This document shows, piece by piece, positions 28,801 through 51,233 of a stretch of DNA of 59,996 bases. A model generated the notes under the pieces. That model was not told the DNA's origin. It saw only the letters and a program-made list of their open reading frames with translations, and ran no database searches. Each line of letters opens with the position of its first letter. The first letter of the stretch is position 1. The position numbers and the translations under genes are program-made. This DNA is from a virus (Duplodnaviria; Caudoviricetes): positions 1 to 59,996 of the IMG/VR virus record IMGVR_UViG_3300023174_000183. One strand, 5' to 3'.

Positions 28801-31800
28801 AAAATACCTAGCAGGTTTTCCCAGAGCCATGGCACGTTGAACTGCGAAAGGATAATCACTGCTGCTGCGCCAGGCCCATTCGACGGGGCCAAAATCTCCT
28901 ACTTTCCAGGCACTGGCCGCAGATTTGGGATGTGTGGCCTTTGCCAGAATCTGAGCCGGGCTCAGTAGTATTCCATGCTCGTTCACTGGTATTACTTGGC
29001 TAAGGCCTGGTCTGGCAAAAGTTGGATCAATCCCTGACCCCAAACCTTGATCTATTAGGCTCCGGAATCCCTGACGGATTCTGCCGGCTTCTAGGTCGTC
29101 CCACAACACTCGATTCGCACCAGTGTAAGGAGCCGGGCCATAATAGTCTTGCCACCAGTCTGGCATCGAAGTAAATCCCAACATTTCCCATGGTGTCAGA
29201 TGTGGACGTTGAGTGTCATAATAATACTGATAGCATGCACGCCAATTCCCTGGCATGTACTCACCGTCAAGTCTATCCTGGCTGCCCGAATAATTCCAGG
29301 TAAATGAATCATTACTAGCAAAAGTTTGATTAGTGGAAAAGTCCAGTCGGTTATTGCCCACCCAGGTCAGAAAACTCTTGGAAATCAGTTGTGTGACTTC
29401 GCCCAGAGTATAATCAGATAATCTGAACTTGCCTGGCACCAACGACAGTATATCACTGTTGATGTTGGTCTCTGGTAACTTTATATTATTGTAAATTCTT
29501 TTTTCTAGTTCCAATATCAGGTTATCCCGATAATCACCAAATGTTGGAATAATACTGCCATCATGACCTCTGATGACATTAATAGGTTCTCTATAAGTGT
29601 CGTCTAGAAAAATTTCAGGAACATATCTAGGATACAGTCCCAATTTAGTAGGAGTCTCTGGTATATAATTGCCATCAGTGTTGTCATATTCAACAATTTT
29701 GATAATGTCATCTATATCCAGCTCCACGCGACTCTCAATGGTCACAGCCGGGCGTGTCTGATCAAATGTATAATCTAAACGGTTAATCAGTTGCACAAAA
29801 TTATTCTGATTGTATTTTTTCAGATAGATCAAAACTGCTCGATTGCTCAGAATTTGATCATTGAAAACCCCATTGATTTCGTATGATCGAACCAGAGGAT
29901 CGAACACCGTGTATCCTTTACCGTTGACCACTCTCTTGAGTGTGCCATATGGAACCATGTCACTGTAGTACCAGGGAAACGATATATTTTTAATATTGGT
30001 TAGGTTGACCATGATGGCATCAACGCCAGCCTCTGGTGTCATGGATTCGATACCAGATAATGTTGACGCCGATTCTAAGAATTTGTTTTTAAATCGACTG
30101 TATTCTACCTGCGCAAACTGCAATGCATCAATGAAATTTGAAGTTTTATCCATTAAAAACATCATGGCATAAGTCACAGGCGCACTGTGTTGAAGTATGG
30201 TTCCGCCTTGAGAATTTATGTCGATGTCTCTGAGATTATTAGTGGATAAAACATTGCCTACCAAATTAGTAGAATTCTGACTCAATGCCACCAGATGGTT
30301 TCTTATTTGACCCAAGGTCATCTGGTCCAGATCTATGTTTTGTGCATTTAGATTTAGATTACTGGGAACTTCATAATGACCTATTTTACTGGGGGCCTTA
30401 CTGTAGATCAACACATCAATTTTATCGTTAACCGCCATAACCGCATTGACCGTCAATTCTTTTCCACTGATTCGATAATCACTTACCGGCAGGAAAACAT
30501 TATTTTTATACACCTTAATATAAGGAATGCTAACTGCATCTGCCGCCTGAATATCCAAAACAAATGAATTTTTAATACCATTGTATGTGTAGGTCAAAAT
30601 TTGATATTGCTTGCTGGACTCTACCACAGTGCGCCAATTGTTTCTGAGATTGGTGGTATATCTGTCTGAAATTTCGGACAAAAATCCATGTTCAGAGATT
30701 CTCAGATCTTTCTGGCTAATCTGATTTTCTACAAATTCAAAAACATCGGTGTCATAATAGTTTTCAAATTCAATGTCGCCCTGGGTGCCAAAATTTCTAT
30801 ATTTGAGCGCAAAGCCTAGGACTGTATCAACTACGCCCGCAGAATTTCTCACGTACCCAAATAGTTGTGTGCCTTTAAATGTACTGCGGTAGTAGCTGCC
30901 CAAACTTTTTCCCTGGGAATCCAGAACGTCAAATAATGGTGCTTGCTGTAACTGTGTTTTTTGCTGCGCGTGGACCCAGTGTTCGCCGTTAAACCACCAA
31001 CTGCTGCCCCGATATTGGCCTTGGGTAACGGTGACTGTGTCCCAAACTTCTGCTGTACTATCCTCTGCTGCTGTTAAATTGATACGAAAATCACCAATGG
31101 GATTGCCCAATTCATCCAAATCATATTGTATCAGATTAATTACATAAATTTTGTTTCTTACTAATGGATCTTCAGCTGCTGAAAACAGTAGTCTGATGCC
31201 ATTAGTCAACGGAATACCAAATGCTGTCGCAATGGTTTGCCCGTCAAATTCATTGAAAGGATCTCGTGTGGTTGTGTCCAAAATGTCAATAGGACGTTTG
31301 CCGACTCTTCCGTTATTGAACAATTGGAAGTTACTGTCAAATTGAACAATAGGGCGCTGAGCCCGAGCATTCTGATCAAACACCGGCTGTCGATTGTTGT
31401 AGGCTGCCGTTTTGATTATGACTTCTTGATGGAACCAACGGTTATTTCTAGACCAGGCATTAAGGTCGACAGAGTCGCGATTGATGGTGATGTATTCGGG
31501 AGAGACTTTATCAGAATAATTTAATGCGATCTCATCATTGTAGGCCTCTGGACGCACTAGTAGATCAACTGCCACCAATTTAATACCATGGCCTACTCGT
31601 TCAACATAATACTCCTGATTCTGATAATTGACAGGCATAATTCCTGCACCAAATCGAACCTTCAATCCATTGGTAAATCTAACACCGTTGGGACTGGTGT
31701 AGGTTTTTTGATTTAAAATTTCCTTTTCAACATCAATGACATCGTTGGCAGGGTTGACAATTTTTAAGAATCCGTATATACTTTTACTACTGCCATCCTG

Positions 31801-33015
31801 AAAGTATAAGGTGTCTTGAAGATTACTCAACAACGGAACTCTTCTAAGAATACCGTCGGAATCCAGATAAAATTCCTGGTTGGCATCGACGATGCCGGAT
31901 TTCACAAAAACTTTCTGATTTTGGGCGAGTGATAAAATCGGAGCCAATCTGATGATGGGATCATCAACAACATCTGAATCAGAATAAACTATCTGCCAGA
32001 CCCCGGAACGTTGTGCCGCCGGCACAATAACACCCTGATCATATCCCTCCTGATTGTAAGTTTGATCATCATAAATCCCTCGGGCAGTCCATGCCTCTTC
32101 CCCGCGGCTAGTCAACTGATCCTGATCAGCAAACACCAGAGTTCTGCTTCCCAGCTGCCGGGCTATTGGCAAATATTCTGGAAATTTCTTTAAGAAAACA
32201 CTCAATCTCTGATTATGCAAATCCGTATATGCTATTGATAGAGCGTAGTCTACATTGTAGACAGTCTGCATCTCGGCAAAACGTTCTTGTGTGTCATCTT
32301 GCGGCACTTGAAATGTTATAATGCCCCGATCTGCGCCATTATTTTCTACTCCCAGTACGTCACGTGAACTTACGCCTGGTCTGGAATTGATCTCACCATC
32401 TATCCCCAACTCTGTTTGTATCCAGAAAGGCGATCCTGGCTGATCCACAGTGAATGTATACGTACCGCCTCGAGCCACTGTGATGTTATTATTGACGACA
32501 TTGTTGTCATAAAAATCATATCTATCGTTGGCCACATTTCGAACAACTCGGAAGTTCTTGACCAAATCAATGCCGGTAGCAGTGACAGTAACAGCATCAG
32601 GGCCATCAGGCAACCAGTAATACTGACTGAAATTCACAAATGCATCATAACTTATGCCTGGATCAAAACTGTAATATTCTTGTTCAAACAACCGACTTTG
32701 GTTGTCGACAAATCCACCATAGTATTTTATTTTGTTTAAAAAATCATCGTAGCTGGCGAAAAAATTTATCTGTCCGATGTCGTTCTTAATCACTAAGCTG
32801 GGTTCAAGTTGATAGTCTTGCCTAACAGCAGAAGATTCTACTACATAACTATCTCCGGCTTTATAAGTGGGCGCAAATTTTCTGCCTATGTAACCATTAA
32901 TTTTGGTAAGTTGGGGTTCAGATATCAGCTGATCCACAGTTGCAGACAAAAATTTCTGATTTGTGTCAGTCTGAAATACACCTGGTAATAGATTTAAACT
33001 TTTTCTTGCGGCCAT
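19849..33015 (-). CDS. Giant (4388 aa) baseplate/virion structural protein with FG-GAP propeller
   Basis: Uninterrupted ORF following gp6; FG...VGAP repeats; GxGY..P.V repeats as in T4-like gp7/VrlC-type wedge proteins; W-x4-Y-x2-G-[DE] motifs. Confidence 0.8.
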   Translation of the reverse strand: MAARKSLNLLPGVFQTDTNQKFLSATVDQLISEPQLTKINGYIGRKFAPTYKAGDSYVVESSAVRQDYQLEPSLVIKNDIGQINFFASYDDFLNKIKYYGGFVDNQSRLFEQEYYSFDPGISYDAFVNFSQYYWLPDGPDAVTVTATGIDLVKNFRVVRNVANDRYDFYDNNVVNNNITVARGGTYTFTVDQPGSPFWIQTELGIDGEINSRPGVSSRDVLGVENNGADRGIITFQVPQDDTQERFAEMQTVYNVDYALSIAYTDLHNQRLSVFLKKFPEYLPIARQLGSRTLVFADQDQLTSRGEEAWTARGIYDDQTYNQEGYDQGVIVPAAQRSGVWQIVYSDSDVVDDPIIRLAPILSLAQNQKVFVKSGIVDANQEFYLDSDGILRRVPLLSNLQDTLYFQDGSSKSIYGFLKIVNPANDVIDVEKEILNQKTYTSPNGVRFTNGLKVRFGAGIMPVNYQNQEYYVERVGHGIKLVAVDLLVRPEAYNDEIALNYSDKVSPEYITINRDSVDLNAWSRNNRWFHQEVIIKTAAYNNRQPVFDQNARAQRPIVQFDSNFQLFNNGRVGKRPIDILDTTTRDPFNEFDGQTIATAFGIPLTNGIRLLFSAAEDPLVRNKIYVINLIQYDLDELGNPIGDFRINLTAAEDSTAEVWDTVTVTQGQYRGSSWWFNGEHWVHAQQKTQLQQAPLFDVLDSQGKSLGSYYRSTFKGTQLFGYVRNSAGVVDTVLGFALKYRNFGTQGDIEFENYYDTDVFEFVENQISQKDLRISEHGFLSEISDRYTTNLRNNWRTVVESSKQYQILTYTYNGIKNSFVLDIQAADAVSIPYIKVYKNNVFLPVSDYRISGKELTVNAVMAVNDKIDVLIYSKAPSKIGHYEVPSNLNLNAQNIDLDQMTLGQIRNHLVALSQNSTNLVGNVLSTNNLRDIDINSQGGTILQHSAPVTYAMMFLMDKTSNFIDALQFAQVEYSRFKNKFLESASTLSGIESMTPEAGVDAIMVNLTNIKNISFPWYYSDMVPYGTLKRVVNGKGYTVFDPLVRSYEINGVFNDQILSNRAVLIYLKKYNQNNFVQLINRLDYTFDQTRPAVTIESRVELDIDDIIKIVEYDNTDGNYIPETPTKLGLYPRYVPEIFLDDTYREPINVIRGHDGSIIPTFGDYRDNLILELEKRIYNNIKLPETNINSDILSLVPGKFRLSDYTLGEVTQLISKSFLTWVGNNRLDFSTNQTFASNDSFTWNYSGSQDRLDGEYMPGNWRACYQYYYDTQRPHLTPWEMLGFTSMPDWWQDYYGPAPYTGANRVLWDDLEAGRIRQGFRSLIDQGLGSGIDPTFARPGLSQVIPVNEHGILLSPAQILAKATHPKSAASAWKVGDFGPVEWAWRSSSDYPFAVQRAMALGKPARYFSLLIDTYGYKSDSKIDQYLTVNNNHLRQTDVKFNGDIKQYQVIRSAGYINWIIDYLKNQGLDPVSKLSEILRNYQVNLAYKMSGFTDKKYIKILAEQSSPSSTNDSVMIPDENYLIHLHKSTPVQKITYSAVIVQKTTNGYSVKGYNLNNPFFTIIPSVTNSRNIQLRVLNETAIIFKDYQRTKLTVPYGYEFKNAQQVVDFLISYERYLLAQGFTFNGRDSDLGEVRDWKLSAREFLFWSQQGWGAGSILVLSPVVNQLTLVTNNAVVDEITNSQVASRILDQNFKLVKNNKYNIIRTATDFQITLAAADSMVGFAELDLVQYEHTLIFDNLTVFNDIIYKPELGNRQYRLKLIGKKTANWDGSLHAPGFVYSSSDIQVWQPGRDYQRGELVQYKSQFWVALEFVIANDDFSWSKWKQIEQAQIKAGLLPNLSTMAVRSQTYYDDYGPFQDSEQLKYSHGLIGYKPRQYLTDLGLSDTTQIELYKGYIKQKGTENAVNQLTKSKFNNINSNINYYEEWAVRVGEYGALNMNPYVEIALDEAEYGVNPALASFVGNEDGQLGNGVNVFNKSQLYGSSGEFNGNIALNRTQESDISNDIPTAGYVNIEDVNATLFDLSDFSTVDSDIDQIGSGYTIWCARDFAGEWNVYRVTETNNHVIEIANGLDNYVMFTTQAPHGLQIKDVFLVKGLTPAFDGVYEVLGTPGMDQIIALYQGNPADYQNLTTVGGFAMLLRLDSMRFKYMEDARIYGLNNPLHGWKVGDKIWIDADAATTTANGQSHNTVSGTWKVYEKTKPWHLQQQLSKASGEYVTDDGFGTSIKLNSDGLYAVVGSPGSLGTGTVSVFNKDYSGIMVEGEQLTPATVAETAEYGATVSLAVEYLAVGAPGSASDTGRVFVYQRPVGTSTFNLIQVLPGNANTHGRFGSSLAYDDVGNWLYVGAPAEDSVYVYGLNSRLEERQQTVFVTSPTNIITVTFTPDVPGVAESLLITKFNRVFLPNVDYTVQGRIITFSTNLSAGEYSIKQHAYYELVTKLQGPAGSEFGYDISASLDGAQLAVGAPNDTVAVNDRAIIGAGAVYVYDRSIEAFNTIADATDTNGKTYQTLDNIGRIHRVTINNNEVSDYAIVGNNNLRFNTVPQVGQVIYVETNQFKLLEKLIGIDSLEGGLSAIQENCRFGTSLTICSNNCAIYVGAPNYDTGTEYNTGAVWKFHNRGRLYGTNIGSVKDPVFTPGDTIRLDNFEVTVTGTTLDSLIQDINSANILGVTAINENGYLRLNSDRTVAKNLLRILSGENNTGNASGVNNVYAAAGMSIFAFMQIIVTPYKNSNENFGKKVVLARNAYMLVIASDGGTTRHYTTLDQGLTYLDDRSTGIFDSVPKSGSVYVYELYDDPRNAVEHPGRYAFAQQLDTGDLKTGDRFGAAIDVMGRQIVVTAPASDEVKTDAGAVYMFSNPTGQRGWNLIRYQEPKLDVSSVNRLYLYNNISNTILTNLEFIDPAKGKILGLADQEITFKTPYDPAYYNRGTVERSGIDRNLYWGPNQIGQVWWDLTNIRYLDYEQGDLIYRSANWGRLFPGSTVEVLEWVESDVVPSQYSGDGMAKYADDSAYVEVMTADPITNIITSKYYYWVINKSELNSDLHGRRLPLVAIQNLIENPRGQDIAYAALIKNNAVIFYNLGKYLTARNTILHVDYELKLNDSLIHSEYDLLQVGNVNSQIPKKIVNRLIDSLSGISSTGANVPDPTLPPANRYGISVRPRQTMFVNRLQAMADLVDFANSIFITKPISRQYDLRQLMSEEPIPDVKYLEYDQIVDTRIELDYIDTIKTPVGYKVLVKTDTDQDGLWVIYQLQANKFWQVRRVQSYKTELYWEFIDWYAEGYNITDKIEYVVETLVDALALPARPGDEILIRVNQGINNVRGWNLISVTATGEYQVVGIENGTIRFKPSLHNLTDNEMGFDNQGFESIRFDQNPNIETRQILTALRDDIFVNELKAEFNNMFFVMINYLMSEQKYVDWIFKTSFISVAHKLRDLNQYPNYVKDNQTYYLDYINEIKPYATKVREYLIKYSGNDSYDGNVTDFDLPPYYDRELSQWRSPDGEYIEKDRQLWATGYLSDGTLINSEYPQWYQHRHHQIIDIKIEDPGQGYKSEPTVSIVGGGGNVILAKARAKIDFDLGTVIAIELVDGGSGYAYTPAVIINGGCDKPARAYAVLKNRQVRSFDSTLKFDRINYTSVVKEWTANTVYAAGDIITRAVVDGGSRVRTAYRVQTDFVTGTQFDPTNLTVCPADYFTNANDRIIAYYEPTKDTPGRYLPRLMSGIDYPGVKVSGLSFDQQPGFDGLLDGEPFDAVEYDEDGNPILSRSAVDAIVRSNYQDAQLGVRPEDIDVDGGAYVDTYSSHAPEELVPGIVFDTLNIKVYTKVFLGTTLLGYRLFIDMLGNPHYTRIASAYSTRLTQDLRLEDQRMHVADATVLSRPDPSTATPGVVFINGERITYYRNYATEVRPWVSNVSYKSDTVLNYGNVVTFSGPVTANIGDTIYQPESGANVKVVANVISSQEVPTQYILTRGHAGNPIVAGAGNIQIIPSGQLNATNLSVYPTSVRTGYYRSLIDLPAAANLDFTQVEAIENINILSQLRRGTLGTGAALVQNAGLAVLDAGVNQNIPNVRITSTTISGNVTYHSTSTPPYNLLLSDNIVPGVGSHITQNSSGANVTVTSVNASVSDTIQLSGEVSVLPGDYITQPSTGANAQVRNSAVNKIYLDIVYVAGQFSVGNALFINNQPLGVYLTASKRQGTSLVTVVYNTPTQFDFSDAAITLSGNVTVNSDDLITQPASGAELRVSRAAINSDQIYVVYKNVNAVTVGQGNIWINGVQSSVYPINNTYNTTISNEIRVDGISQPLVCPIATNLIGKTDANGNVTLRDGTKIVQENIWYSAGIDSATNGQGFDLEDSEQVRFLKSSTAELLTSFELATDEDVVNILITEDGRTLSAEFGGNR

Positions 33016-36502: not shown

Positions 36503-36880
36503 TTAACGGGCAGTCAATATATTGGATTGGTTGTCAAATCGGAGATTCAGCAGACTGCTCTGATTGGTCTGAACGTACCTAAGTTCCAGATCTATCTGCA
36601 GGCCCTGATCATATTCGGTAATCATGACTCGATCCACTGACACACGAGGATCAGAACTCACAATGTTTTTGACATCTTCGGCGATGACATTTTTGAGACT
36701 GTCTGTCAGTGGCTCATGCAACACGTTCCAGATAATGGTTCCAAAGCTGGGATTCATAAGTTTTTCACCTTTACGAATGTAAAAGTGATTGATCAGATCC
36801 TGCCGCACCAGTTCAAAATCTGTCAGTCGAAATTTTTTCTTTCGACCCACTGTACTGAATCCACGATACATTATAGCCAT
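36503..36880 (-). CDS. gp25: Baseplate wedge protein gp25-like (GPW/gp25)
   Basis: DLINHFYIRKGEKLMNPSFGTIIWNVLHEP...DPRV; size and position upstream of gp6. Confidence 0.9.
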   Translation of the reverse strand: MAIMYRGFSTVGRKKKFRLTDFELVRQDLINHFYIRKGEKLMNPSFGTIIWNVLHEPLTDSLKNVIAEDVKNIVSSDPRVSVDRVMITEYDQGLQIDLELRYVQTNQSSLLNLRFDNQSNILTAR

Positions 36881-36890
36881 AGTCTAGTAT

Positions 36891-38975
36891 TTAACCTTGT
36901 TTGATATCAGACACTTTTGGTGCCAATACTGCCACAGCATATTTGCCCACGCCAAAATACGTGTCGCCTGTGGTGCCATATTGGTCAGCACCCCCTTGAC
37001 CATTACGCCATTTTTTAGCGCCGCCTGCGCCCAACAAGTGACTGACTGCCAACATGCCGCCTACTTCTTCGGGTTTCATATCTTTGTCTATGGCGCCAAT
37101 CCTTACCATGGTACTGTAGTTGGCATTAGTGTATTTGCAAATTAATTGTTCTTGCAATGGGCCATTGCTCAAAAATTCTTCCAAACTTGCTGGGCCACCA
37201 TTGCCGATCCAACTATTGGGGTTTCGTAACTGTGCATTACTCTTGACCGAACTTTTAACCATTTTGAGATCTATCAGAGCTGGATATCCAAATTGGTATT
37301 TGCCCACAAATCCAATACTATTAACAGTGTCATATTTTCCGCCACTTTCTTTTTTGCCTATCTGTGCATAATATGCTGTCATCTGATCTGCATTTAGGTT
37401 GCCCACCGTGCAAGTGCAAGGCGGTTGGTTTCGCAGATCTTTTTCATTGGCAGGATTTTTTACTCCTGGAGGAACATCTTTAATGGCATCTGAGGTGCCA
37501 GTATATGCTTGTTCTGGGGTACCTCCTGAAATTGACGGCTGAGCGTTATTTTGTTCTGCCATAAAAGATGCCACCGCTGCACGATCATATGGTTCGTGTG
37601 TGGGCAAGGCAGTCGCAATGCTGTCAGTCTGTCCTGGTTTGCTGACCCACAGGCCTTTCGCACTTTCAAATGATGTGTCAGGAAACTTTGTGCTGGTCAG
37701 CGATTTTAACTGTTTGACAGATTTGGTGCCACCGGTATTTTGTTTGATGCTACTGCCCACCAAGGCCACCACTCCGCCGGCTTGCAGACCAATGGCGGCG
37801 CCACTGTCTACTCGTAAATCGCTGCCGGATTTTAATTCTATTTCGCCCAGGCTTTCCAAATTTAGCTTGCCTTGTAGCATCTCAGTGCTACCGGAGTTAA
37901 CAACAAATTTACCGCCTGCTCGAATGTTAATATTATTTTTGGCATCGATGTTGATGTTGTTGTCGCTGTGCAAGTTTATGGTGCCCTCACTGCGTATATT
38001 GACACCAGCCTTGCTGTAGATTTTCACTGAACCTTCAGCAGTCAATTCTACCCAGCTGGTGCCGTCACCGTGTGCGAGATAAACACTGTTAGCAGTGTCG
38101 TGCATCAATAATTGATGGCCATTGGCCGTACGCAGGCGTATTAATTGATCTAACCCCAACACAGTGCCGTCATCCAGAACAAATGTGTGGCCACCTTTGC
38201 GAGCGCCAACCCTATAGGTGTCCTGAGTTATTTGACCAGCATTGGCCAATTTATTGAATTTGTCTATGTCATCTGCAGGATCATTAACTGGTCTCCCGGG
38301 TGTACTAATGCCAAACACATTGCTAGGGCTCTCACGCTGACTACTGCTGCTGATGGCTCCGCGTATCTCATCACGATCTAAGCCCTGCTGACGATAGATG
38401 TTGTATTGATATTCGTGTATGGGTTTGAGATTGTTGAAGAAGGCAGGATTAGTGAGATTTTTATCAGACTCATTGAATTCCACCACTGGCATGTTGTTGC
38501 CGGCGACAAATCCTTTTTTTGATTCGGCACTGGCAGTGCCAAGATCCACATTGGTGCTGCCAGCCAACCCTGGCAACATATGATGACTCAAATACGGATT
38601 GACACAGGCTAGCCAATAGCCGCGCTGCGGATCTCCAGCAATGAAAATACAAATGACCTGCACGCCGATGTCTGGTGGCACCATCCACATGCCATAGGTA
38701 TGGTTGACACTGTCAAAATTATTGGCACTGCTAGTGCTTTGGGTGTTGCTGTATCCTTGGAAAGGACTGGCATATCTGACTGTGCGCCAATTGATTCGAT
38801 CTTTTTCATCGCCTCCCAGATCAGGAATCCAGACCTGAAGTCTGCCGCTGCGTGTGGGGTCCAGGTTGTTTTTGACCACACCAATATAGGGATAGGGATC
38901 CACTCGGGTGCCAGTGGCCTCTTCTCTGCGGAAAGCCTTGTCTACTTTGGTACCTAATCTACGGTCTACGGTCAT
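36891..38975 (-). CDS. gp5: Baseplate hub/spike protein (gp5/VgrG-like) with C-terminal lysozyme-like domain
   Basis: GVVKNNLDPTRSGRLQVWIP (OB fold), GMWMVPPDIG, GHTFVLDD, beta-helix repeats, PTHEP, then ESGGKY...GKYQFG...SHLLGAG. Confidence 0.82.
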   Translation of the reverse strand: MTVDRRLGTKVDKAFRREEATGTRVDPYPYIGVVKNNLDPTRSGRLQVWIPDLGGDEKDRINWRTVRYASPFQGYSNTQSTSSANNFDSVNHTYGMWMVPPDIGVQVICIFIAGDPQRGYWLACVNPYLSHHMLPGLAGSTNVDLGTASAESKKGFVAGNNMPVVEFNESDKNLTNPAFFNNLKPIHEYQYNIYRQQGLDRDEIRGAISSSSQRESPSNVFGISTPGRPVNDPADDIDKFNKLANAGQITQDTYRVGARKGGHTFVLDDGTVLGLDQLIRLRTANGHQLLMHDTANSVYLAHGDGTSWVELTAEGSVKIYSKAGVNIRSEGTINLHSDNNINIDAKNNINIRAGGKFVVNSGSTEMLQGKLNLESLGEIELKSGSDLRVDSGAAIGLQAGGVVALVGSSIKQNTGGTKSVKQLKSLTSTKFPDTSFESAKGLWVSKPGQTDSIATALPTHEPYDRAAVASFMAEQNNAQPSISGGTPEQAYTGTSDAIKDVPPGVKNPANEKDLRNQPPCTCTVGNLNADQMTAYYAQIGKKESGGKYDTVNSIGFVGKYQFGYPALIDLKMVKSSVKSNAQLRNPNSWIGNGGPASLEEFLSNGPLQEQLICKYTNANYSTMVRIGAIDKDMKPEEVGGMLAVSHLLGAGGAKKWRNGQGGADQYGTTGDTYFGVGKYAVAVLAPKVSDIKQG

Positions 38976-44716: not shown

Positions 44717-45725
44717 CTTGTTTAAGAAAGCGGCTGTTTTAACTGATATTCACTTTGGATTAAAGAGCAACAGTCAGACACACAACGACGATTGTCTTAG
44801 CTTTGTCAAATGGTTTATAGAAACCGCTAAGGCAGAAGACTGCGATACCTGTTTTGTCACAGGTGACTGGCACAACAATCGTGCGTCCATCAACATAGTC
44901 ACACTCAACTACAGTCTCGCAGCATTGGAGTTGTTGGGTCGATCTTTTGATCGTGTGTTCTTTATTCCTGGCAACCACGATTTGTACTACAGAGACAAAC
45001 GTGATATACAATCAGCCGAGTGGGCCCGGCATATTCCCAATATTGAGATCGTCAACGACTTCTACACCGAGGGCGATGTCAGTATTGTGCCTTGGTTGGT
45101 GGGCGATGATCACAAGAAACTGGGCAAGATTGAAGCCAAATATATGTTTGGGCATTTTGAATTGCCACACTTTTACATGAATGCCATGGTACAAATGCCG
45201 GATCATGGCGAAATCAAAGAGGACGCGTTCAACGGAGTAGAACGTGTGTTTACTGGGCATTTCCACAAACGACAGCAGCGTGGCAACATCACCTACATTG
45301 GCAATTGTTTTCCACACAATTATGCCGATGCCGGAGATGATGAGCGTGGTATGATGATTTTGGAATGGGGTCAGGAGCCAAAATACCATGCTTGGCCCAA
45401 CCAACCCCGTTACCGAGTCTATGGTCTCAGTGATGTGCTCAAAGCTCCTGAAAAGTTGCTGTTGCCCAACATGCACTGTCGTGTTAATATTGATATTGAT
45501 ATCACCTACGAAGAATCAACTTTTATCAAGGAAACATTCGTGGGCACCTATGGTCTCAGAGAAATGACTTTGGTGCCCAACAAAAATCTAGACCTAAGCT
45601 CAGACGGTGCTGCTGGCAATATTGCATTTGAAAGCGTGGACACCATTGTCACCAATCAATTGACCAATATTGCCAGCGAACACTACGATTCTAAAATTCT
45701 ACTAGACATTTATCGGCATCTATAA
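44709..45725 (+). CDS. gp47: Recombination nuclease, Mre11/SbcD-like (gp47)
   Basis: TDIHFG, GDW, GNHD, GHF, GHFH metallophosphoesterase motifs. Confidence 0.93.
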   Translation: MSNLFKKAAVLTDIHFGLKSNSQTHNDDCLSFVKWFIETAKAEDCDTCFVTGDWHNNRASINIVTLNYSLAALELLGRSFDRVFFIPGNHDLYYRDKRDIQSAEWARHIPNIEIVNDFYTEGDVSIVPWLVGDDHKKLGKIEAKYMFGHFELPHFYMNAMVQMPDHGEIKEDAFNGVERVFTGHFHKRQQRGNITYIGNCFPHNYADAGDDERGMMILEWGQEPKYHAWPNQPRYRVYGLSDVLKAPEKLLLPNMHCRVNIDIDITYEESTFIKETFVGTYGLREMTLVPNKNLDLSSDGAAGNIAFESVDTIVTNQLTNIASEHYDSKILLDIYRHL

Positions 45726-46450
45726 TGAAAATCTATACCAATGGGTGTTCATTTACCTACGGTGACGAATTAACTGATCCCAACAAAAGTGCATGGCCGG
45801 TGTTGTTGGGCAACAAACTAAATGCCACTAATGTGTTCAACGATGCTGAATCGGGAGGATCGAACCAACGACTGATCTATCAAACAATAAAAAATTTGAA
45901 AGAATGTTACGATCTATATATTTTGGCATGGACCAGTAATGCTCGGTTTACTTTTTACAAATCAGATAATAATTTTAGCATACACTTTAACCCATCTCTG
46001 ACCCACTCCTTTTACGGTCAAGAAAAATTTTATGCTGATTGGGGCAAAAGACTCTATAAATTTTGGTACAATGAACTTTTTTCATTTAAATTATGGTTAC
46101 AACAAATCATCCAACTGCAAGCATTGCTGGAAATCAACAACAGTCAGTATTTGATGCTGAACACATTTGAAAACCATCTAAAGTCATGGTCTTCTGATTG
46201 GCCAAATTTCATCAATCAAGTCAAACCTTTGATCAATTTCAAAATCATGAATGACGATCAAATATTTGCAGAATATGAAGAAATACAATATTATATTAGT
46301 TTAATTGACACAACAAAATTTTATAAATGGAATGAATTTTGTATAGCAGAATTATCATTGAGTTGTCCAGTGGGACCCAATGGACATATATTAGAACAAG
46401 GTCACGAAAAACTTGCTGAACTATTACACCATCATTTATGTTTAAAGTAA
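45725..46450 (+). CDS. SGNH hydrolase-like protein inserted between gp47 and gp46
   Basis: YTNGCSFTYGDEL...AWP, GGSNQR, AWTSNAR, NGHILEQGHEKLAE; visibly AT-richer than flanks. Confidence 0.75.
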   Translation: MKIYTNGCSFTYGDELTDPNKSAWPVLLGNKLNATNVFNDAESGGSNQRLIYQTIKNLKECYDLYILAWTSNARFTFYKSDNNFSIHFNPSLTHSFYGQEKFYADWGKRLYKFWYNELFSFKLWLQQIIQLQALLEINNSQYLMLNTFENHLKSWSSDWPNFINQVKPLINFKIMNDDQIFAEYEEIQYYISLIDTTKFYKWNEFCIAELSLSCPVGPNGHILEQGHEKLAELLHHHLCLK

Positions 46451-48260: not shown

Positions 48261-48452
48261 ATGGAATCAACCACACACGAACAAATTGTAGCAGCATACG
48301 AAGCATACCTAGCAGAGAACGAAAAGTTTGAAGTCAAAGGTGTCAAGGCAGCAAGTGCTCGGGCCCGTGCCGCACTGGGAGATCTAGGCAAGCTGGCCAA
48401 GGTTCGCCGCGCCGAAATTCAAGAAAAGAAAAACTCACTGTCTGCTAAATGA
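48261..48452 (+). CDS. Histone H1-like (Hc1-family) DNA-binding protein
   Basis: EKFEVKGVKAASARARAALGDLGKLAKVRRAEI matches the Hc1-type KGNKAAG.RARK pattern; strong RBS. Confidence 0.7.
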   Translation: MESTTHEQIVAAYEAYLAENEKFEVKGVKAASARARAALGDLGKLAKVRRAEIQEKKNSLSAK

Positions 48453-49117
48453 AATTTAGTGACACTGTCGCCTATGGTAAATCGCATCACTTCAGAGGCA
48501 GTGTCACTAGAAATCCCTTGGATCAAATAGTCCTTTTTAAATTAATAAATCAATACAAATTTAAAAAATTATTGGAAATAGGCTATTTCGAAGGATTAAC
48601 TTTCAGTATATTATATGAAGCCAGCCACCATGATGCCAAATTAACAGCATGTGATATTACATTTGACCATGATGTTCTTTCAAAAATTTTGAAATTTACA
48701 AAAACTGTGAATTTTAGATCAGGCGGCAGTGAAGAGTTGCGTTTGTCTGGCAGTTATGATTTTATCAACATCGACGGAGAACATAGTTATACTGCGGTAC
48801 AAAGAGAAACTGCATTGATACAAAATCATTTTGACAATTTGGGAATTCTCATGATTGACGATTATCAATACCCTGGAGTTCATCAGGCTTTGGTAGAGTT
48901 CACTGATTCAAGTGATTTCGTGCCGTTTTTGTTAGGACCGCAGCAAATGTTTTTGCAAAAACAGTCAAGAGATATCGATTGGCTAATTAATGATACAAAG
49001 GGATTTTGTAGCTGGGAAAATACCCATTGGAATAATTTTCCTGTTAAAAAATACAATTATAAAAATCCAGTGTTTATTGATAAATTACCGCAACTTATTG
49101 AAAGATTAGGATTATAA
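48449..49117 (+). CDS. Class I SAM-dependent methyltransferase (Methyltransf_24-like)
   Basis: LLEIGYFEGLT (motif I), YDFINIDGEHSY, GILMIDDY. Confidence 0.8.
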   Translation: MKFSDTVAYGKSHHFRGSVTRNPLDQIVLFKLINQYKFKKLLEIGYFEGLTFSILYEASHHDAKLTACDITFDHDVLSKILKFTKTVNFRSGGSEELRLSGSYDFINIDGEHSYTAVQRETALIQNHFDNLGILMIDDYQYPGVHQALVEFTDSSDFVPFLLGPQQMFLQKQSRDIDWLINDTKGFCSWENTHWNNFPVKKYNYKNPVFIDKLPQLIERLGL

Positions 49118-49656
49118 TGCCCAGTCCACAGAAAGCCAAAGGCAGCAGTTGGGAGCGCGAAGTCGCCCGTTATCTGACTCAACAGTTTGGCGAGACGTTT
49201 ATTCGCGCTCCAGGGTCAGGGGCTTATGTGGGCGGTACCAACAACATCAGAAAACAATTCTTGCATCAGGGGCAGATTCGCAGTTTCAAAGGTGATATTG
49301 TTCCCGGTGAAAGTTTCTCAGCATTGAATGCCGAATGCAAGAGTTACAAAGATTTTCCCTTTCATCAATTATTTCAAGGCTCAGTTAAAATTTTAGATCA
49401 ATGGATTGAACAGTGTATGGATGCAGCTGACACAGGCGATTTCAACATACTGTTCATGAAGTTTAACCGCAAAGGTCGATACGTAGCATTTCAGGCACAA
49501 CCCAATCACACCAATTTATTCTTGACCCGGCACTTCAATTATGGCACACAACATCATGGTCACTGGTTCATCATGGACATGGATCTATTTTTTGAATTAA
49601 ATAGCAACAAATTTGCAGAACTTTGCAGTAAACAATTAGCCACTGTTGCAGCGTAA
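49117..49656 (+). CDS. Holliday junction resolvase-like PD-(D/E)XK nuclease
   Basis: KAKGSSWEREVA, RAPGSGA, GDIV, AECK: Hjc-type motif order. Confidence 0.75.
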   Translation: MPSPQKAKGSSWEREVARYLTQQFGETFIRAPGSGAYVGGTNNIRKQFLHQGQIRSFKGDIVPGESFSALNAECKSYKDFPFHQLFQGSVKILDQWIEQCMDAADTGDFNILFMKFNRKGRYVAFQAQPNHTNLFLTRHFNYGTQHHGHWFIMDMDLFFELNSNKFAELCSKQLATVAA

Positions 49657-50070
49657 GCTGTGTCTCAGGTGATTGTGCTCGCGTAATGGCCGCACATGGA
49701 ACACAAGGACTAGACCTTGTCAGAGACGGCATGCAGGACACTAGGTGTAAAAACCCAAAGATGTGGGCACTGTGAAAAAGATACAACCCATGCAATGGAC
49801 ATAGTTGGCTAACTACGGCTATGTTTGTTGTCCGCCAGATGAAGCTAGAGTAGGGGGTACCGGCTGACCGCCTCCGTTATGCTTGCTAGCAAGTACGTTT
49901 TCAATGAAAATTGTACTTTTAGCACGTATAAATCTCTTTTAGTTAGTATGATGCAGAACTCAGATAAAGTCTCTGACATACTTTGCCTTGTGATAGGTGA
50001 AGTATGACCTAAATCTAGATAAAGCACTTAAAAGCAGCACAGTAAAACAAAGCTATTCACTGTGTTTAGA
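49657..50070 (+). ncRNA. Candidate large structured non-coding RNA/DNA element
   Basis: Only large intergenic gap in the window; many stems, several with G-U pairs on the + strand (see findings). Family unknown. Confidence 0.55.
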
Positions 50071-50074
50071 TTGG

Positions 50075-50123
50075 AAAAAAAGCGTTGAGCGCAAGCGAAA
50101 ACGCAGATGTACGAAGTACATCT
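50075..50123 (-). terminator. Tandem hairpins plus U7 tract, probable terminator of the gp26-like transcript
   Basis: AGATGTAC-gaa-GTACATCT (50105-50123) and GCGTT...AACGC (50082-50104), followed on the minus strand by T7 (50075-50081). Confidence 0.6.
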
Positions 50124-50353
50124 TAAAAGAATGGCATGTTGGACTTTTTAGTTGTTTCTAAATTGTCTTTGGCTAACTTACTGATTAATTCTCGATCAAC
50201 TGTTGACAATAACATGGCATCGTCATAACTCAGCCCACCACGCATGTACCAGCATAGTCTCAACGCATCATCTTTATAGGCTCTTACGTCTCGTTCGTAA
50301 CTGTCAATCAGCTGCTGGACTGCGTTGGGATCCAGCGTTAAGAGCCTTAGGCG
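50123..50353 (-). CDS. gp51-like C-terminal segment, probably reached by -1 frameshift from the upstream ORF
   Basis: RLCWYMRGGLSYDDAMLLSTVDRELI resembles tail chaperone T/gp51-type segments; no good start or RBS; it is the -1 frame at T-TTT-TTC. Confidence 0.65.
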   Translation of the reverse strand, partial: RLRLLTLDPNAVQQLIDSYERDVRAYKDDALRLCWYMRGGLSYDDAMLLSTVDRELISKLAKDNLETTKKSNMPFF

Positions 50354-51213
50354 AAAAAACTTGAATAATCGAACGTTATGCTGACAGGAAATTCCTTCTG
50401 ACACTCCTGGGTCTGACATGTAACTTGTACAGGTTTAATTCCCGCTTCGTCTGCCAATTCCTTGAGACGTTTCTGAACAGCTTTAATCACTCGATTTTCG
50501 GCATTATTGAAAAACTCATTGATGTATTGCTGATCGGTAACCACTGTGCCATCATCAGCAATGATGGAAGCAGTACTGGTGCTGAGTAACCCCACATTCA
50601 ATTCAATGATTTTGTTTAGATGTTGCTCAAATTGACGTTTGGCCGCGTCGGGATCATCTTCGATATCCCCCAAACTACGCAACAACTGTTGTTCTTCGAA
50701 AGCAATCATATTGGTTTTATTGGCGCTGGCATATGGTTGAGGCTTTAGTGTGATCTTTAAGCCACTTATTTCCAATGGAACATTATAATTTGGTGCCTGT
50801 ATGTTGCTTAGAACTTGACTCAGATCGATGGCATATTCATTAGTAGTCTTGCAATGTGGGCAAGTGGTTTCAAAATCCATCTCATTGCCGTAACTGGCAA
50901 TGCGTATGGCAATCAATGTGGCATCTACATCGATACTGGGCATCTGCCAAGCATCTTTGATGTCTGGGCAGCAGCTCTGGATCACTGTGACCACACCTTG
51001 TCCATTTAATAATGCGTCTGGTGTTTTTAGGGTGATTTCATCTCGAGTGGTCATGGGCATGATGCCAATTTCGCCGTGTGCTGGCAGTGTTAAGGCATTA
51101 GCCGGCCAATGCGCTCCCTGGCTAGGTAATTTGAAATAAATTGCTGGTTGTCTAAAATGTCTAGCTAAGGGGTTAGTGGTGGAACCAGTTTGGTCCAACG
51201 GTCTAAATTCCAT
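50347..51213 (-). CDS. gp26: Baseplate hub assembly/tail chaperone (T4 gp26-like)
   Basis: LPSQG, MPMTTRDEITLK, DVDATLIAIRIASYG, CPHC, C-x4-C; adjacent to the tape measure gene. Confidence 0.8.
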   Translation of the reverse strand: MEFRPLDQTGSTTNPLARHFRQPAIYFKLPSQGAHWPANALTLPAHGEIGIMPMTTRDEITLKTPDALLNGQGVVTVIQSCCPDIKDAWQMPSIDVDATLIAIRIASYGNEMDFETTCPHCKTTNEYAIDLSQVLSNIQAPNYNVPLEISGLKITLKPQPYASANKTNMIAFEEQQLLRSLGDIEDDPDAAKRQFEQHLNKIIELNVGLLSTSTASIIADDGTVVTDQQYINEFFNNAENRVIKAVQKRLKELADEAGIKPVQVTCQTQECQKEFPVSITFDYSSFFA

Positions 51214-51225
51214 GGTTTGAAATCC

Positions 51226-51233
51226 TATAAATA
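51226..51233 (+). promoter_or_regulatory. Perfect T4 late promoter TATAAATA (tape measure)
   Basis: Exact consensus in the divergent intergenic region. Confidence 0.7.

Follow-up and report, generated by a model that had tools for sequence, protein, structure and literature searches.

The window (the whole stretch of viral DNA analysed, 59,996 nt) belongs to the genome of an uncultured T4-like jumbo phage; the closest cultured match to its portal is that of Pseudomonas phage PA5oct (50.6-50.8% identity). At the edge of a set of recombination- and replication-related genes (gp46/47 homologues and a resolvase), the window contains an ORF-free, structured element of about 490 nt, conserved as a single block, with the following neighbours:

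49117..49656, + strand: PDDEXK / RusA-like endonuclease gene (PF24608, 5.1e-25; phrog_244)
49637..50123, + strand: whole structured RNA element, ~487 nt, delimited by alignments, helix counts and the lack of a conserved ORF; both ends predicted
50123..51213, - strand: two converging neighbours, the small conserved ORF at 50123-50419 and, at 50347-51213, a gp26-like baseplate hub gene (PF12322, 7.4e-18; phrog_150)

The 5' edge (~49637) lies within the final ~20 nt of the endonuclease ORF and the 3' edge at 50123. The earlier note, made from the sequence alone, had described about 410 nt of structure starting at the stop codon of this gene; the element is indeed there, but it is longer, running from ~49637 to 50123. 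Its position is constant in syntenic loci, invariably between converging gene blocks, and both flanking neighbours vary. The idea that the RNA partners the adjacent nuclease is weakened because the endonuclease gene is not always a neighbour. The small converging ORF, considered as an obvious partner, has no family match.

An nhmmer profile detects homologues in 73 of the 99 syntenic IMG/VR loci; of 80 additional loci retrieved by the core pattern, 77 have one. The core pattern itself was counted in at least 120 stretches of IMG/VR, and the pseudoknot core described below is present in the window and in 128 relatives. Each of five contigs of 91-307 kb has a single copy. The homologues fall into sequence groups A, B and C, with a 5' domain in B and C that differs from that of A, and more than 100 sequences show no change at the core nucleotides. 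Among 60 distinct homologues, no ORF of at least 35 aa is kept in one place and on one strand.

Searches for known families gave no assignment. Rfam 15 yields no match in the whole window at gathering thresholds, and at E up to 10 only four between 49400 and 50400 (E 4.4-9.1; 11-18 bits, against thresholds of 40-110). GOLLD (RF01998) and ROOL (RF03087) match at neither setting, ARAGORN finds no tRNA or tmRNA gene in the window, and there is no DNA similarity to 50,697 phage records. A faint likeness to group II intron domain I, raised in the earlier note, is not borne out: there is no Rfam match, no conserved ORF in the element and no reverse transcriptase (RVT_1) in five contigs of 60-307 kb. 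No description of the element's RNA was found in the literature searched, supplements lying outside its scope.

Fold and strand of the RNA

On the + strand the element reaches a minimum free energy of -123.7 kcal/mol (z -2.63), better than all 100 shuffles, whereas 12 of 100 shuffles equal the - strand (z -1.17). The main covariation count covers 17 close relatives, 99 proposed pairs and 1656 cells, of which 92.8% are paired, against 35-41% when partners are slid. Double-sided changes occur in 54 of the 99 pairs (11-17 when slid), and none of 500 shuffles matches the covariation score. Among 74 further distinct sequences, 86.8% of cells are paired, against 42-58% after sliding. The structured gap described in the earlier note is real, both in folding energy against shuffled controls and in covariation across relatives. 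Because G.U cells outnumber A.C cells 162 to 40 in the + strand reading, the RNA is read from that strand; G.U is the most frequent pair at nine of the 99 positions. The tetraloop variants of the T1 hairpin (GCAA, GAUA, GUAA, GACA, GCGA and GAAA) fit GNRA on the + strand only. The parts, all on the + strand, are these:

49639..49730: 5' junction domain of the group A type; pairing in 97.6-100% of cells, two-sided changes in 17 of 25 pairs
49639-41/49728-30: P-1, in the 5' junction domain
49648-52/49657-61: P0, in the 5' junction domain, with the endonuclease stop codon in its loop
49662-66/49723-27: P1 (GTCTC/GAGAC), in the 5' junction domain
49674-78/49692-96: P2 (TGTGC/GCACA), in the 5' junction domain
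49703-08/49715-20: P3 (ACAAGG/CCTTGT), in the 5' junction domain
49744-46/49753-55: P4; 98% paired, double changes in one of three pairs
49762-67/49787-92: P5 (TGTGGG/CCCATG); 97% paired, double changes in four of six pairs
49793..49830: P6, long hairpin (49793-95/49828-30 and 49799-806/49817-24); 100% and 94.1% paired, double changes in 7 of 11 pairs
49832..49937: pseudoknot core (CCG, PK1, Hd, Hb, Hc), covarying
49835-39 with 49863-67: PK1; 3 bp in the window, up to 5 elsewhere
49847-50/49934-37: Hd, in the pseudoknot core
49853-57/49871-75: Hb (GGGGG/CCTCC), in the pseudoknot core
49877-49931: Hc, variable hairpin, including the window's extra hairpin at 49884-49924
49940..49946: 3' strand of PK2 (UAGUUAG), 7 bp with the P6 loop; 100% of cells paired, four of seven pairs with double changes
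49954-56/49973-75 and 49958-59/49969-70: Hx, weak stem around motif copy 1; 66.7% and 88.2% paired
49958..49969: twin motif copy 1 (ACUC, AGAUAAA, G), identical to copy 2 in its 7-nt motif
49977..50006: H12, hairpin between the twin motifs (49977-87/49996-50006); 98.4% paired in the 17 relatives
50013..50024: twin motif copy 2 (AUCU, AGAUAAA, G), identical to copy 1 in its 7-nt motif
50025..50081: variable A/U-rich linker from the alignments, with a hairpin found in the window only (50037-43/50059-65)
50082..50104: T1 hairpin; covarying outer stem (50082-86/50100-04) enclosing a near-invariant GA-GC-GNRA-GC-GAA
50105..50123: T2 hairpin with GAA triloop (50105-12/50116-23); covarying stems in the alignments

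The fold joins the 5' junction domain and three hairpins to a core where PK1 and PK2, both covarying, lock Hd and Hb together. Of 26 distinct PK1 strand pairs, 24-25 are paired at positions 2-4, and all 15 distinct Hb pairs are paired at positions 2-5; pairing in the core was also examined in 77 further sequences. An invariant CCG (49832-34) opens the core. The 5' strand of PK2 is the P6 loop (49809-15), and reading of the alignments finds corresponding changes in groups B and C. The segment of P4 and P5 (49744..49792) has a conserved A-rich loop, and P5 with this loop is common to groups A and B.

In the 3' module, H12 separates the two copies of the 7-nt motif and two terminal hairpins complete the RNA. 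Double changes affect 7 of the 11 H12 pairs among the 74 distinct sequences, and a conserved GUAUGAC follows the hairpin. The stems around the motifs are less secure. The observed mean for Hx is reached by 5 of 2000 permutations and this stem was graded weakly supported; a closing helix around copy 2 (Hr2, 50012-17/50067-72; 70.4% paired) is equalled by 930 of 2000 permutations and was rejected as unsupported. The A-run ending the linker (50075-81) is conserved in ~80% of sequences. On the - strand it places U7 directly 3' of T1, and T1 with the A-run may also serve as terminator of the converging late genes; a terminator scan did not list T1, presumably owing to its long compound loop. T2, which adjoins the stop codon of the - strand ORF (50123-25), is present as a hairpin of at least 6 bp in 43 of 58 sequences, most often with a GAA (18) or GUA (12) loop. 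On the + strand a short U-rich stretch follows it, with 2-4 U only.

Among the helices proposed in the earlier note, P1, P2, P3, P5, the GACATAGTT/GGCTATGTT hairpin (P6), Hb and the 12-bp hairpin at 49977-50006 (H12) are upheld by covariation in the 17 relatives. Others fall away. GGACA(49736-40)/TGTCC(49829-33) is paired in just 1-8 of 17 sequences per position. In the CGG/CCG proposed inside Hb two positions never vary and the third is A.G in 11 of 17, and the helix competes with the covarying pseudoknot; GCACAGT/ACTGTGT lies in the variable linker and, by the alignment, occurs in the window only. The long hairpin at 49884-49924 exists in the window and in two relatives (L003 and L030) but is a lineage-specific insertion rather than a conserved part.

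Given abundant compensatory changes, two covarying pseudoknots, a G.U excess, conservation in which no ORF is kept, and no Rfam 15 match, the earlier suggestion of an undescribed large phage ncRNA on the + strand holds, and 49637-50123 is very probably a structured RNA gene.

The twin motif and a multi-copy relative

The two AGATAAAG direct repeats noted earlier at 49962 and 50017 are confirmed, and their 7-nt motifs lie ~55 nt apart (48-59 nt) on either side of H12. Alignment-based counts find the copies identical in 108 of 114 distinct sequences, spread over 16 haplotypes, and in 53 of 57 sequences they agree at the three commonly variable positions; among new sequences retrieved without use of the motif, 64 of 65 scorable ones have identical 7-mers. 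On the tree each copy has undergone at least 52-53 state changes (about 50 switches), a count that recombination moving both copies together may inflate. Among independent pairs, the twin changes in the same way in 7.9 of 8 at position 1 and in 7 of 7 at position 5, and never in the opposite way. The sole strong coupling partner of a variable motif column is its own twin (mutual information 0.75-0.89 bit), position i going with position i and not with n+1-i. To our knowledge, there is no precedent for such a twin-locked hypervariable motif, which covaries by identity and not by complementarity.

No third strand complementary to the motif occurs within ~400 nt (6/120 for the own motif, 69/1440 for other haplotypes), and no other alignment column is coupled with the twins. 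Genomes carrying AGATAAAG or GGATGATR show no genome-wide enrichment of the motif that they carry. A 10-nt complement of the motif at window position 34106 was rejected as a target: it lies antisense to a coding gene and accords with a chance occurrence. Antiparallel pairing between the two copies, as proposed by RNAalifold, is refuted by the haplotype combinations, and template jumping by a phage reverse transcriptase was dismissed on the absence of an RVT_1 match from the five contigs of 60-307 kb.

The nearest relative of the element appears to be an equally undescribed, multi-copy RNA of Rak2/121Q-like phages, on which no publication was found in the literature searched. Model R1 matches, at full length, the gap 36737-37476 of phage EJP2 (OQ411014.1; 20.6 bits, E 0.054 genome-wide). 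R1 matched one of the five EJP2 copies, and the other four were found by BLAST from this first copy; a second R1 match, on the - strand (E 0.57 genome-wide), was set aside as probably due to chance. All five copies show the order CCG, PK1 5', UA, Hb 5', AAAC-AGR, PK1 3', CCCG, Hb 3', G, so that the series used to recognize the core (CCG, PK1, UA, Hb, AC, RG, PK1', CCG, Hb', G) is found in both the window and EJP2, and Hb and PK1 show compensatory changes among the EJP2 copies. These also carry two CGUCA-type motifs around a conserved hairpin (56 nt apart in copy a), and copy e contains the inner motif of T1. The two RNAs differ in number and length (five copies of ~0.55-0.7 kb in EJP2, one of ~0.49 kb in the window's phage) and in their 5' regions, and the twin motif is just partly concordant among the EJP2 copies. 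The EJP2 copy examined has a promoter-like sequence ahead, by our reading, whereas none was found for the element. The RNAs share modules. As the match of the whole model is weak, distant homology is judged likely and membership of one family is not proven. In SCTP-2, PA5oct, Phosso and Atu_ph07, R1 finds nothing credible (best E 0.6-1).

Function of the RNA and its alternatives

The explanation preferred as a whole, in which we have moderate confidence, is that the element encodes a stable ncRNA of ~490 nt, whose family, occurring in T4-like and Rak2-like jumbo phages, is undescribed. The RNA would be made by read-through from the early/middle block of recombination genes, or from a promoter inside that block, and would end at the T1/T2 hairpins. 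A scan for sigma-70-like promoters gave hits at chance level, none positioned to start the RNA, and the octamer that we take to be the T4 late-promoter consensus occurs once, at 51226, upstream of another gene. Contigs of the one RNA run that matches the region lie on a relative's endonuclease gene and not on the element; a 518-nt contig of this run shares a 32-nt stretch (49757-49788) and is otherwise unlike the window. These contigs speak neither for nor against expression. Against the explanation as a whole, the A-run and T1 resemble a terminator for the late genes, so that the 3' end may act partly for the opposite strand.

In trans, the RNA could be a rigid scaffold that offers the two identical, fast-evolving motifs as twin docking sites, both read by one and the same sequence-reading partner. 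This mechanism is put forward tentatively, as having appreciably less than an even chance. It is evolutionarily demanding, since the reader must have changed together with two sites ~50 times, and of the stems that might present the motifs Hx is weakly supported and Hr2 unsupported. Because the motif is freely reprogrammed, a complementary nucleic acid, or a factor carrying one, is a more likely partner than an ordinary protein dimer. Two known systems are comparable. Sponge RNAs of the CsrB/RsmZ type show one short motif several times, and a dimeric partner reads it with its two identical halves. The element likewise repeats a short motif on one RNA, but where the sponge RNAs have many repeats of a motif constant across species, on simple hairpins, it has two copies, a pseudoknotted scaffold and a motif that changes between close relatives. 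The bridge RNA of IS110 folds into a scaffold whose two loops recognise nucleic acid by base pairing and can be reprogrammed; its loops differ from each other and its recombinase adjoins, whereas the element has identical motifs and no dedicated enzyme gene linked to it.

The strongest rival, still fairly unlikely, makes the element a replication origin or its primer RNA: a structured primer or R-loop, iteron-like repeats for a co-evolving initiator and the A/U-rich linker as unwinding element. Precedents for such a primer or R-loop are ColE1 RNA II and the T4 oriF/oriG transcripts, and several origin sites of the oriF/oriG kind exist in T4-type genomes. Like these, the element is structured and sits beside replication or recombination genes; its direct repeats, 48-59 nt apart, evolve together in the manner of iterons, repeat 2 has a variable A/U-rich stretch and the A-run on its 3' side, and the related Rak2-like RNAs occur as five spaced copies per genome. 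There are, however, two repeats only, where the iteron type calls for at least three, and no linked initiator gene was found. The hairpin between the repeats and the whole region are under RNA-type constraint, with G.U on one strand, and a double-pseudoknot core with invariant single strands exceeds known primer needs. The fold is far more elaborate than in these systems. The GC skew, proposed earlier as a check for an origin, has its minimum in the window near 33-43 kb, where gene direction changes, and not at 49.7 kb.

An extension of the scaffold reading, which we regard as unlikely, takes the twin motifs as a programmable address, with which the scaffold would read one complementary sequence two times, making it a twin-guide RNA of a new class in jumbo phages. 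It might, for example, bring two occurrences of one site, in DNA or RNA, together for the adjacent recombination and replication machinery. Alternatively, the motifs might pair out of register with their own template strand, in which case only the two copies need to change together.

Decidedly unlikely is an RNA-only homo-oligomer, a symmetric multimer with the twin motifs as contacts between subunits. GOLLD and ROOL are large, ornate ncRNAs of unknown function, often borne by phages or prophages. The former was reportedly first seen in lake metagenomes. Both form RNA-only homo-oligomers (PMC12286853), and the element resembles the homo-oligomeric RNAs GOLLD, ROOL and OLE in being large, ornately folded and phage-borne. 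When G.U is counted as a pair, copy 2 and its prefix together (AUCURGAU) form a self-complementary stretch, and a twin-to-twin contact needs just two co-changes per switch, which fits ~50 switches. Against this, antiparallel pairing would predict the best combination to be A in the first copy and G in the second, which is found in 0 of 57 sequences, against 29 with A in both, and Watson-Crick kissing does not produce coupling of position i with position i. The element also differs from GOLLD and ROOL in its helices, conserved sequences and lack of a tRNA neighbourhood, and neither model matches it.

Just as improbable is a cis-acting 3' end element, that is, a long 3' UTR with back-to-back terminators that insulates converging units and protects from exonucleases, with no function in trans. 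The constant position between converging gene blocks accords with it, as do T1 followed by U7 on the - strand, T2 followed by the short U-rich stretch on the + strand, and the failure to find a promoter of its own. Terminators or stabilisers, however, can do without a 400-nt pseudoknotted structure that covaries, has invariant single strands and carries a twin-locked motif, and in EJP2 the related copy, behind the promoter-like sequence that we read there, is flanked by genes that point the same way.

Very unlikely is a self-processing ribozyme or other catalytic RNA, as suggested in the earlier note too, in which the double-pseudoknot core would be an active site, for instance for release from the upstream mRNA. 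The 5' edge of the element falls within the upstream ORF, which leaves no space for a promoter, and its core nucleotides are invariant in more than 100 sequences. Yet no ribozyme family matches at E up to 10, hammerhead and small self-cleaving types included (the conserved junction strands of the 5' domain are GAGGAGAU and UGGAAC), no conserved candidate cleavage site was found, and the 5' domain, where processing would be expected, differs between sequence groups. Finally, a small protein gene or a chance structure in spacer DNA has a negligible probability: the window's gap does contain ORFs of 42-60 aa, but among 60 copies they are conserved in neither place, frame nor strand, and the nucleotide conservation of the element equals or exceeds that of the flanking genes, with compensatory substitutions.

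Transcribed, ORF-free regions are known from a cultured jumbo phage. The PA5oct study lists four, ncRNA001-004, of 236-619 nt and unknown function, at 8.3, 22, 103 and 246 kb (PMC7318152). They are like the element in lacking ORFs and in their jumbo phage origin, but none lies at the PA5oct hub/resolvase region (~75-78 kb), and a search of the whole of PA5oct with R1 yields no match up to E 1.

Strongly covarying large RNAs of intricate fold are seldom found, and the discovery of a new class has tended to bring new biochemistry to light. The preferred reading, a stable ncRNA, concerns an abundant element, its core being present in at least 120 viral contigs. The clade of the window's phage has no cultured member. 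Because Rak2-like giant phages of enterobacteria, which share its modules, can be grown in the laboratory, the RNA can be studied at the bench; the twin-locked motif points to a partner and makes function testable by single and double motif swaps. If the twin-guide reading were true, this RNA would have been retargeted ~50 times within the sampled diversity. The finding would add a missing gene to the annotation of jumbo phages and a new family to RNA catalogues.

A conserved folded element, probably an RNA gene, in a jumbo-phage fragment

The gap that follows the endonuclease gene was described in an earlier note as an ornate structured element, and it is one: its + strand folds better than shuffled sequence, it is conserved across loci and it contains no conserved ORF. 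The predicted energy of 49657-50070 (+) is -123.7 kcal/mol, below 100 of 100 dinucleotide shuffles (z -2.63), versus a z of -1.17 on the - strand, where 12 of 100 shuffles fold equally well. Among 99 loci collected via the two flanking proteins, the element was found in 55 by single-sequence nhmmer and in 73 by a profile. The 60 distinct element sequences from these loci share no ORF of at least 35 aa that is constant in place, frame or strand.

Genes and RNA features (window coordinates, strand)
Window: gp55-type late sigma factor (T4-like gene content)
Window: gp47/gp46 (SbcCD-like) homologues (T4-like)
Window: T4-type portal and prohead protease (T4-like)
49117-49656, +: PDDEXK/RusA-like endonuclease gene, upstream of the element
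5' junction domain, +: helices P-1, P0, P1, P2 and P3, supported in the close relatives aligned; the endonuclease stop codon lies within the P0 loop
Hairpins P4, P5 and P6, +: supported
Helix Hd, +: supported; encloses Hb and the variable hairpin Hc
Hairpin H12, +: supported
49835-39 (3' of an invariant CCG) with Hb loop 49863-67, +: pseudoknot PK1, covarying
P6 loop 49809-15 with 49940-46, +: pseudoknot PK2
49958, +: twin motif copy 1 (ACUC plus 7 nt), direct repeat
50013, +: twin motif copy 2 (AUCU plus 7 nt), direct repeat
50082-50104, +: hairpin T1; outer stem covaries around a near-invariant GA-GC-tetraloop-GC-GAA
50105-50123, +: hairpin T2
50123-50419, -: small ORF converging on the element; a gp26-like baseplate hub gene is next

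The portal shares ~50% identity with its counterparts in Pseudomonas phage PA5oct and relatives, and 45-48% with the portals of Atu_ph07 and the Rak2/121Q-like Escherichia phages; together with the T4-like genes, these identities show the window (a 59,996-base IMG/VR record, estimated as 17% complete) to be part of the genome of a jumbo phage not in culture. Sequencing runs sharing words with it are lake, freshwater or aquatic metagenomes, and the run that shares most may be the sample of origin. The neighbours vary while the element keeps its place: some loci have a different gene upstream instead of the endonuclease, or one lying between the endonuclease and the element, and certain others carry extra sequence before the small ORF. 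As listed, this ORF shares 73 nt (50347-50419) with the 3' end of the hub gene, and its true start probably lies further downstream, as homologues match over ~65-69 aa only. A 63-aa protein (48261-48452, +) matching the chlamydial histone H1-like Hc1 family (PF07432, 1.2e-10) is kept close to the element in many related loci. Elsewhere in the window, a DUF6071 gene (45725-46450, +) sits between the gp47 and gp46 homologues, and a single ORF of 4388 aa (19849-33015, -), followed on the same strand by ORFs of 1140, 694 and 1044 aa, presumably forms a giant virion or tail-fibre-like protein block.

A full-length alignment of the element in 17 close relatives was written out as 99 pairs in 20 helices. 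Standard pairs fill 92.8% of its 1656 cells, versus 35-41% when partners are slid by 1-3 columns, and both sides have changed in 54 of the 99 pairs (11-17 when slid); none of 500 shuffles matched the observed pairing or covariation score. The supported helices are joined by two pseudoknots. PK1 occurs as 26 distinct strand pairs over 128 sequences, with positions 2-4 paired in 24-25 of the 26 and up to five standard pair types at a position. PK2 pairs in 100% of alignment cells, with double changes in four of its seven pairs, and corresponding changes are read from alignments of other sequence groups. Among the matches listed, Hd, Hb and H12 pair at 86.8% in 74 independent distinct sequences (42-58% slid). 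Some helices of the earlier note did not survive the pairing test, namely the closing helix GGACA/TGTCC and the inner CGG/CCG; GCACAGT/ACTGTGT is confined to the window and was likewise dropped. The long hairpin at 49884-49924 exists there, as an insertion of a few lineages rather than a general part of the fold. This optional hairpin, with a similar stem sequence, lies at the equivalent place inside Hc in two other loci (L003 and L030), and its carriers come from two different sequence groups.

Strand, ends and expression

Within the aligned helices G.U pairs occupy 162 cells versus 40 for A.C, and at 9 of 99 positions G.U outnumbers every other pair; since these pairs would be mismatches on the other strand, the + strand is the one read. 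Variants of the T1 tetraloop agree with GNRA on the + strand only. T2 forms a hairpin of at least 6 bp in 43 of 58 sequences, with mostly GAA or GUA loops. A conserved A-run precedes T1, so that on the - strand T1 is trailed by U7, and it may double as a late-gene terminator. The conserved structure starts at ~49637, within the upstream ORF. Scans of the window found no promoter for the element. The window's only exact copy of the T4 late-promoter octamer (51226-51233, +) lies 58 nt upstream of a 981-aa gene at 51292. The sole RNA run sharing words with the window, X20, consists of contigs, and these leave the element uncovered. One of them, a 518-nt contig from a lake metatranscriptome (record 19), matches 49757-49788, the conserved P5 loop, only, with unlike flanks; this may reflect transcription in a distant relative, or chance.

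Distribution and possible relatives

Rfam 15 gave no match at gathering thresholds and only noise up to E 10, ARAGORN found no tRNA or tmRNA, blastn against 50,697 phage records returned no match, and the literature searched contained no description of this RNA. Four ncRNAs are described in the PA5oct paper, all of them elsewhere in that genome (PMC7318152).

At least 120 IMG/VR stretches contain the core pattern, the RNA is single-copy in five contigs of 91-307 kb, and more distant loci give weaker matches within the equivalent gap. A search model of the element (R1) found no credible match in SCTP-2, PA5oct, Phosso or Atu_ph07, including the hub-to-resolvase intervals of PA5oct and Phosso. 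These intervals, ~1.5 kb in PA5oct (L102, 2478-3990; annotated with four ORFs of 38-50 aa only) and ~1 kb in Phosso (L103, 2986-4001; unannotated), may contain other non-coding features. R1 does match Escherichia phage EJP2, in a 740-nt unannotated gap (genome-wide E 0.054), a model-level score that alone is no proof. EJP2 has five copies of its large RNA; all five carry the pseudoknot core with compensatory changes in Hb and PK1, a conserved hairpin lies between two CGUCA-type motifs, whose spacing in copy a is 56 nt, and one copy contains the T1 inner motif. Judged by these common modules, the two RNAs are probably distant relatives. Ahead of the EJP2 RNA (L108, 1258-1300), an extended -10-like sequence and a hairpin with a U-run immediately 3' may constitute a promoter and an accompanying leader or attenuator.

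The twin motif and its possible function

The two 7-mers of the twin motif flank H12, 48-59 nt apart, and vary between phages but almost never inside one RNA. In a first set, the three commonly variable positions are identical in 53 of 57 sequences, a level matched by none of 10,000 shuffles. A second set came from an IMG/VR scan with the pseudoknot-core pattern only, the motif being unused; among the matches listed, R1 matches 77 of 80 loci, and the new distinct sequences number 72, with identical 7-mers in 64 of the 65 that were scorable. In two of the seven unscored rows, both copies carry the same shortened motif. Divergent members have otherwise invariant positions altered in both copies together, to ACAUGAW or ACCGAAM. 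Overall, 108 of 114 distinct rows are concordant, representing 16 haplotypes. On a tree computed with the motif columns excluded, at least 52-53 state changes are needed per copy; recombination that carries both copies together may make independent switches look more numerous than they are. Between phylogenetically independent pairs the twins change alike in 7.9 of 8 cases at position 1, 7 of 7 at position 5 and 5 of 6 at position 7, with no opposite-direction change. Every variable column is strongly coupled with its own twin only (0.75-0.89 bit), and this coupling is one of identity, not complementarity.

Several candidate explanations were rejected. Antiparallel pairing of the copies predicts combinations that never occur in the first set; a complementary third strand within ~400 nt is no commoner for the own motif (6/120) than for other haplotypes (69/1440); and template jumping between the repeats lacks a reverse transcriptase in the five contigs searched.

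The likeliest reading is a stable scaffold RNA that would act in trans, presenting two identical sites to a single sequence-reading partner. The search for nearby complements yielded no such partner, and the motif shows no genome-wide enrichment in the carrier genomes tested; this mechanism is therefore tentative. An origin or primer RNA, whose repeats would be iteron-like, is unlikely. An oligomer built from RNA only is improbable, and a 3' end or terminator element acting solely in cis has an equally slim chance. A ribozyme is very doubtful. If the element is a trans-acting scaffold, reading of its two sites by base pairing would be favoured over an ordinary protein surface, because the haplotypes are so many.
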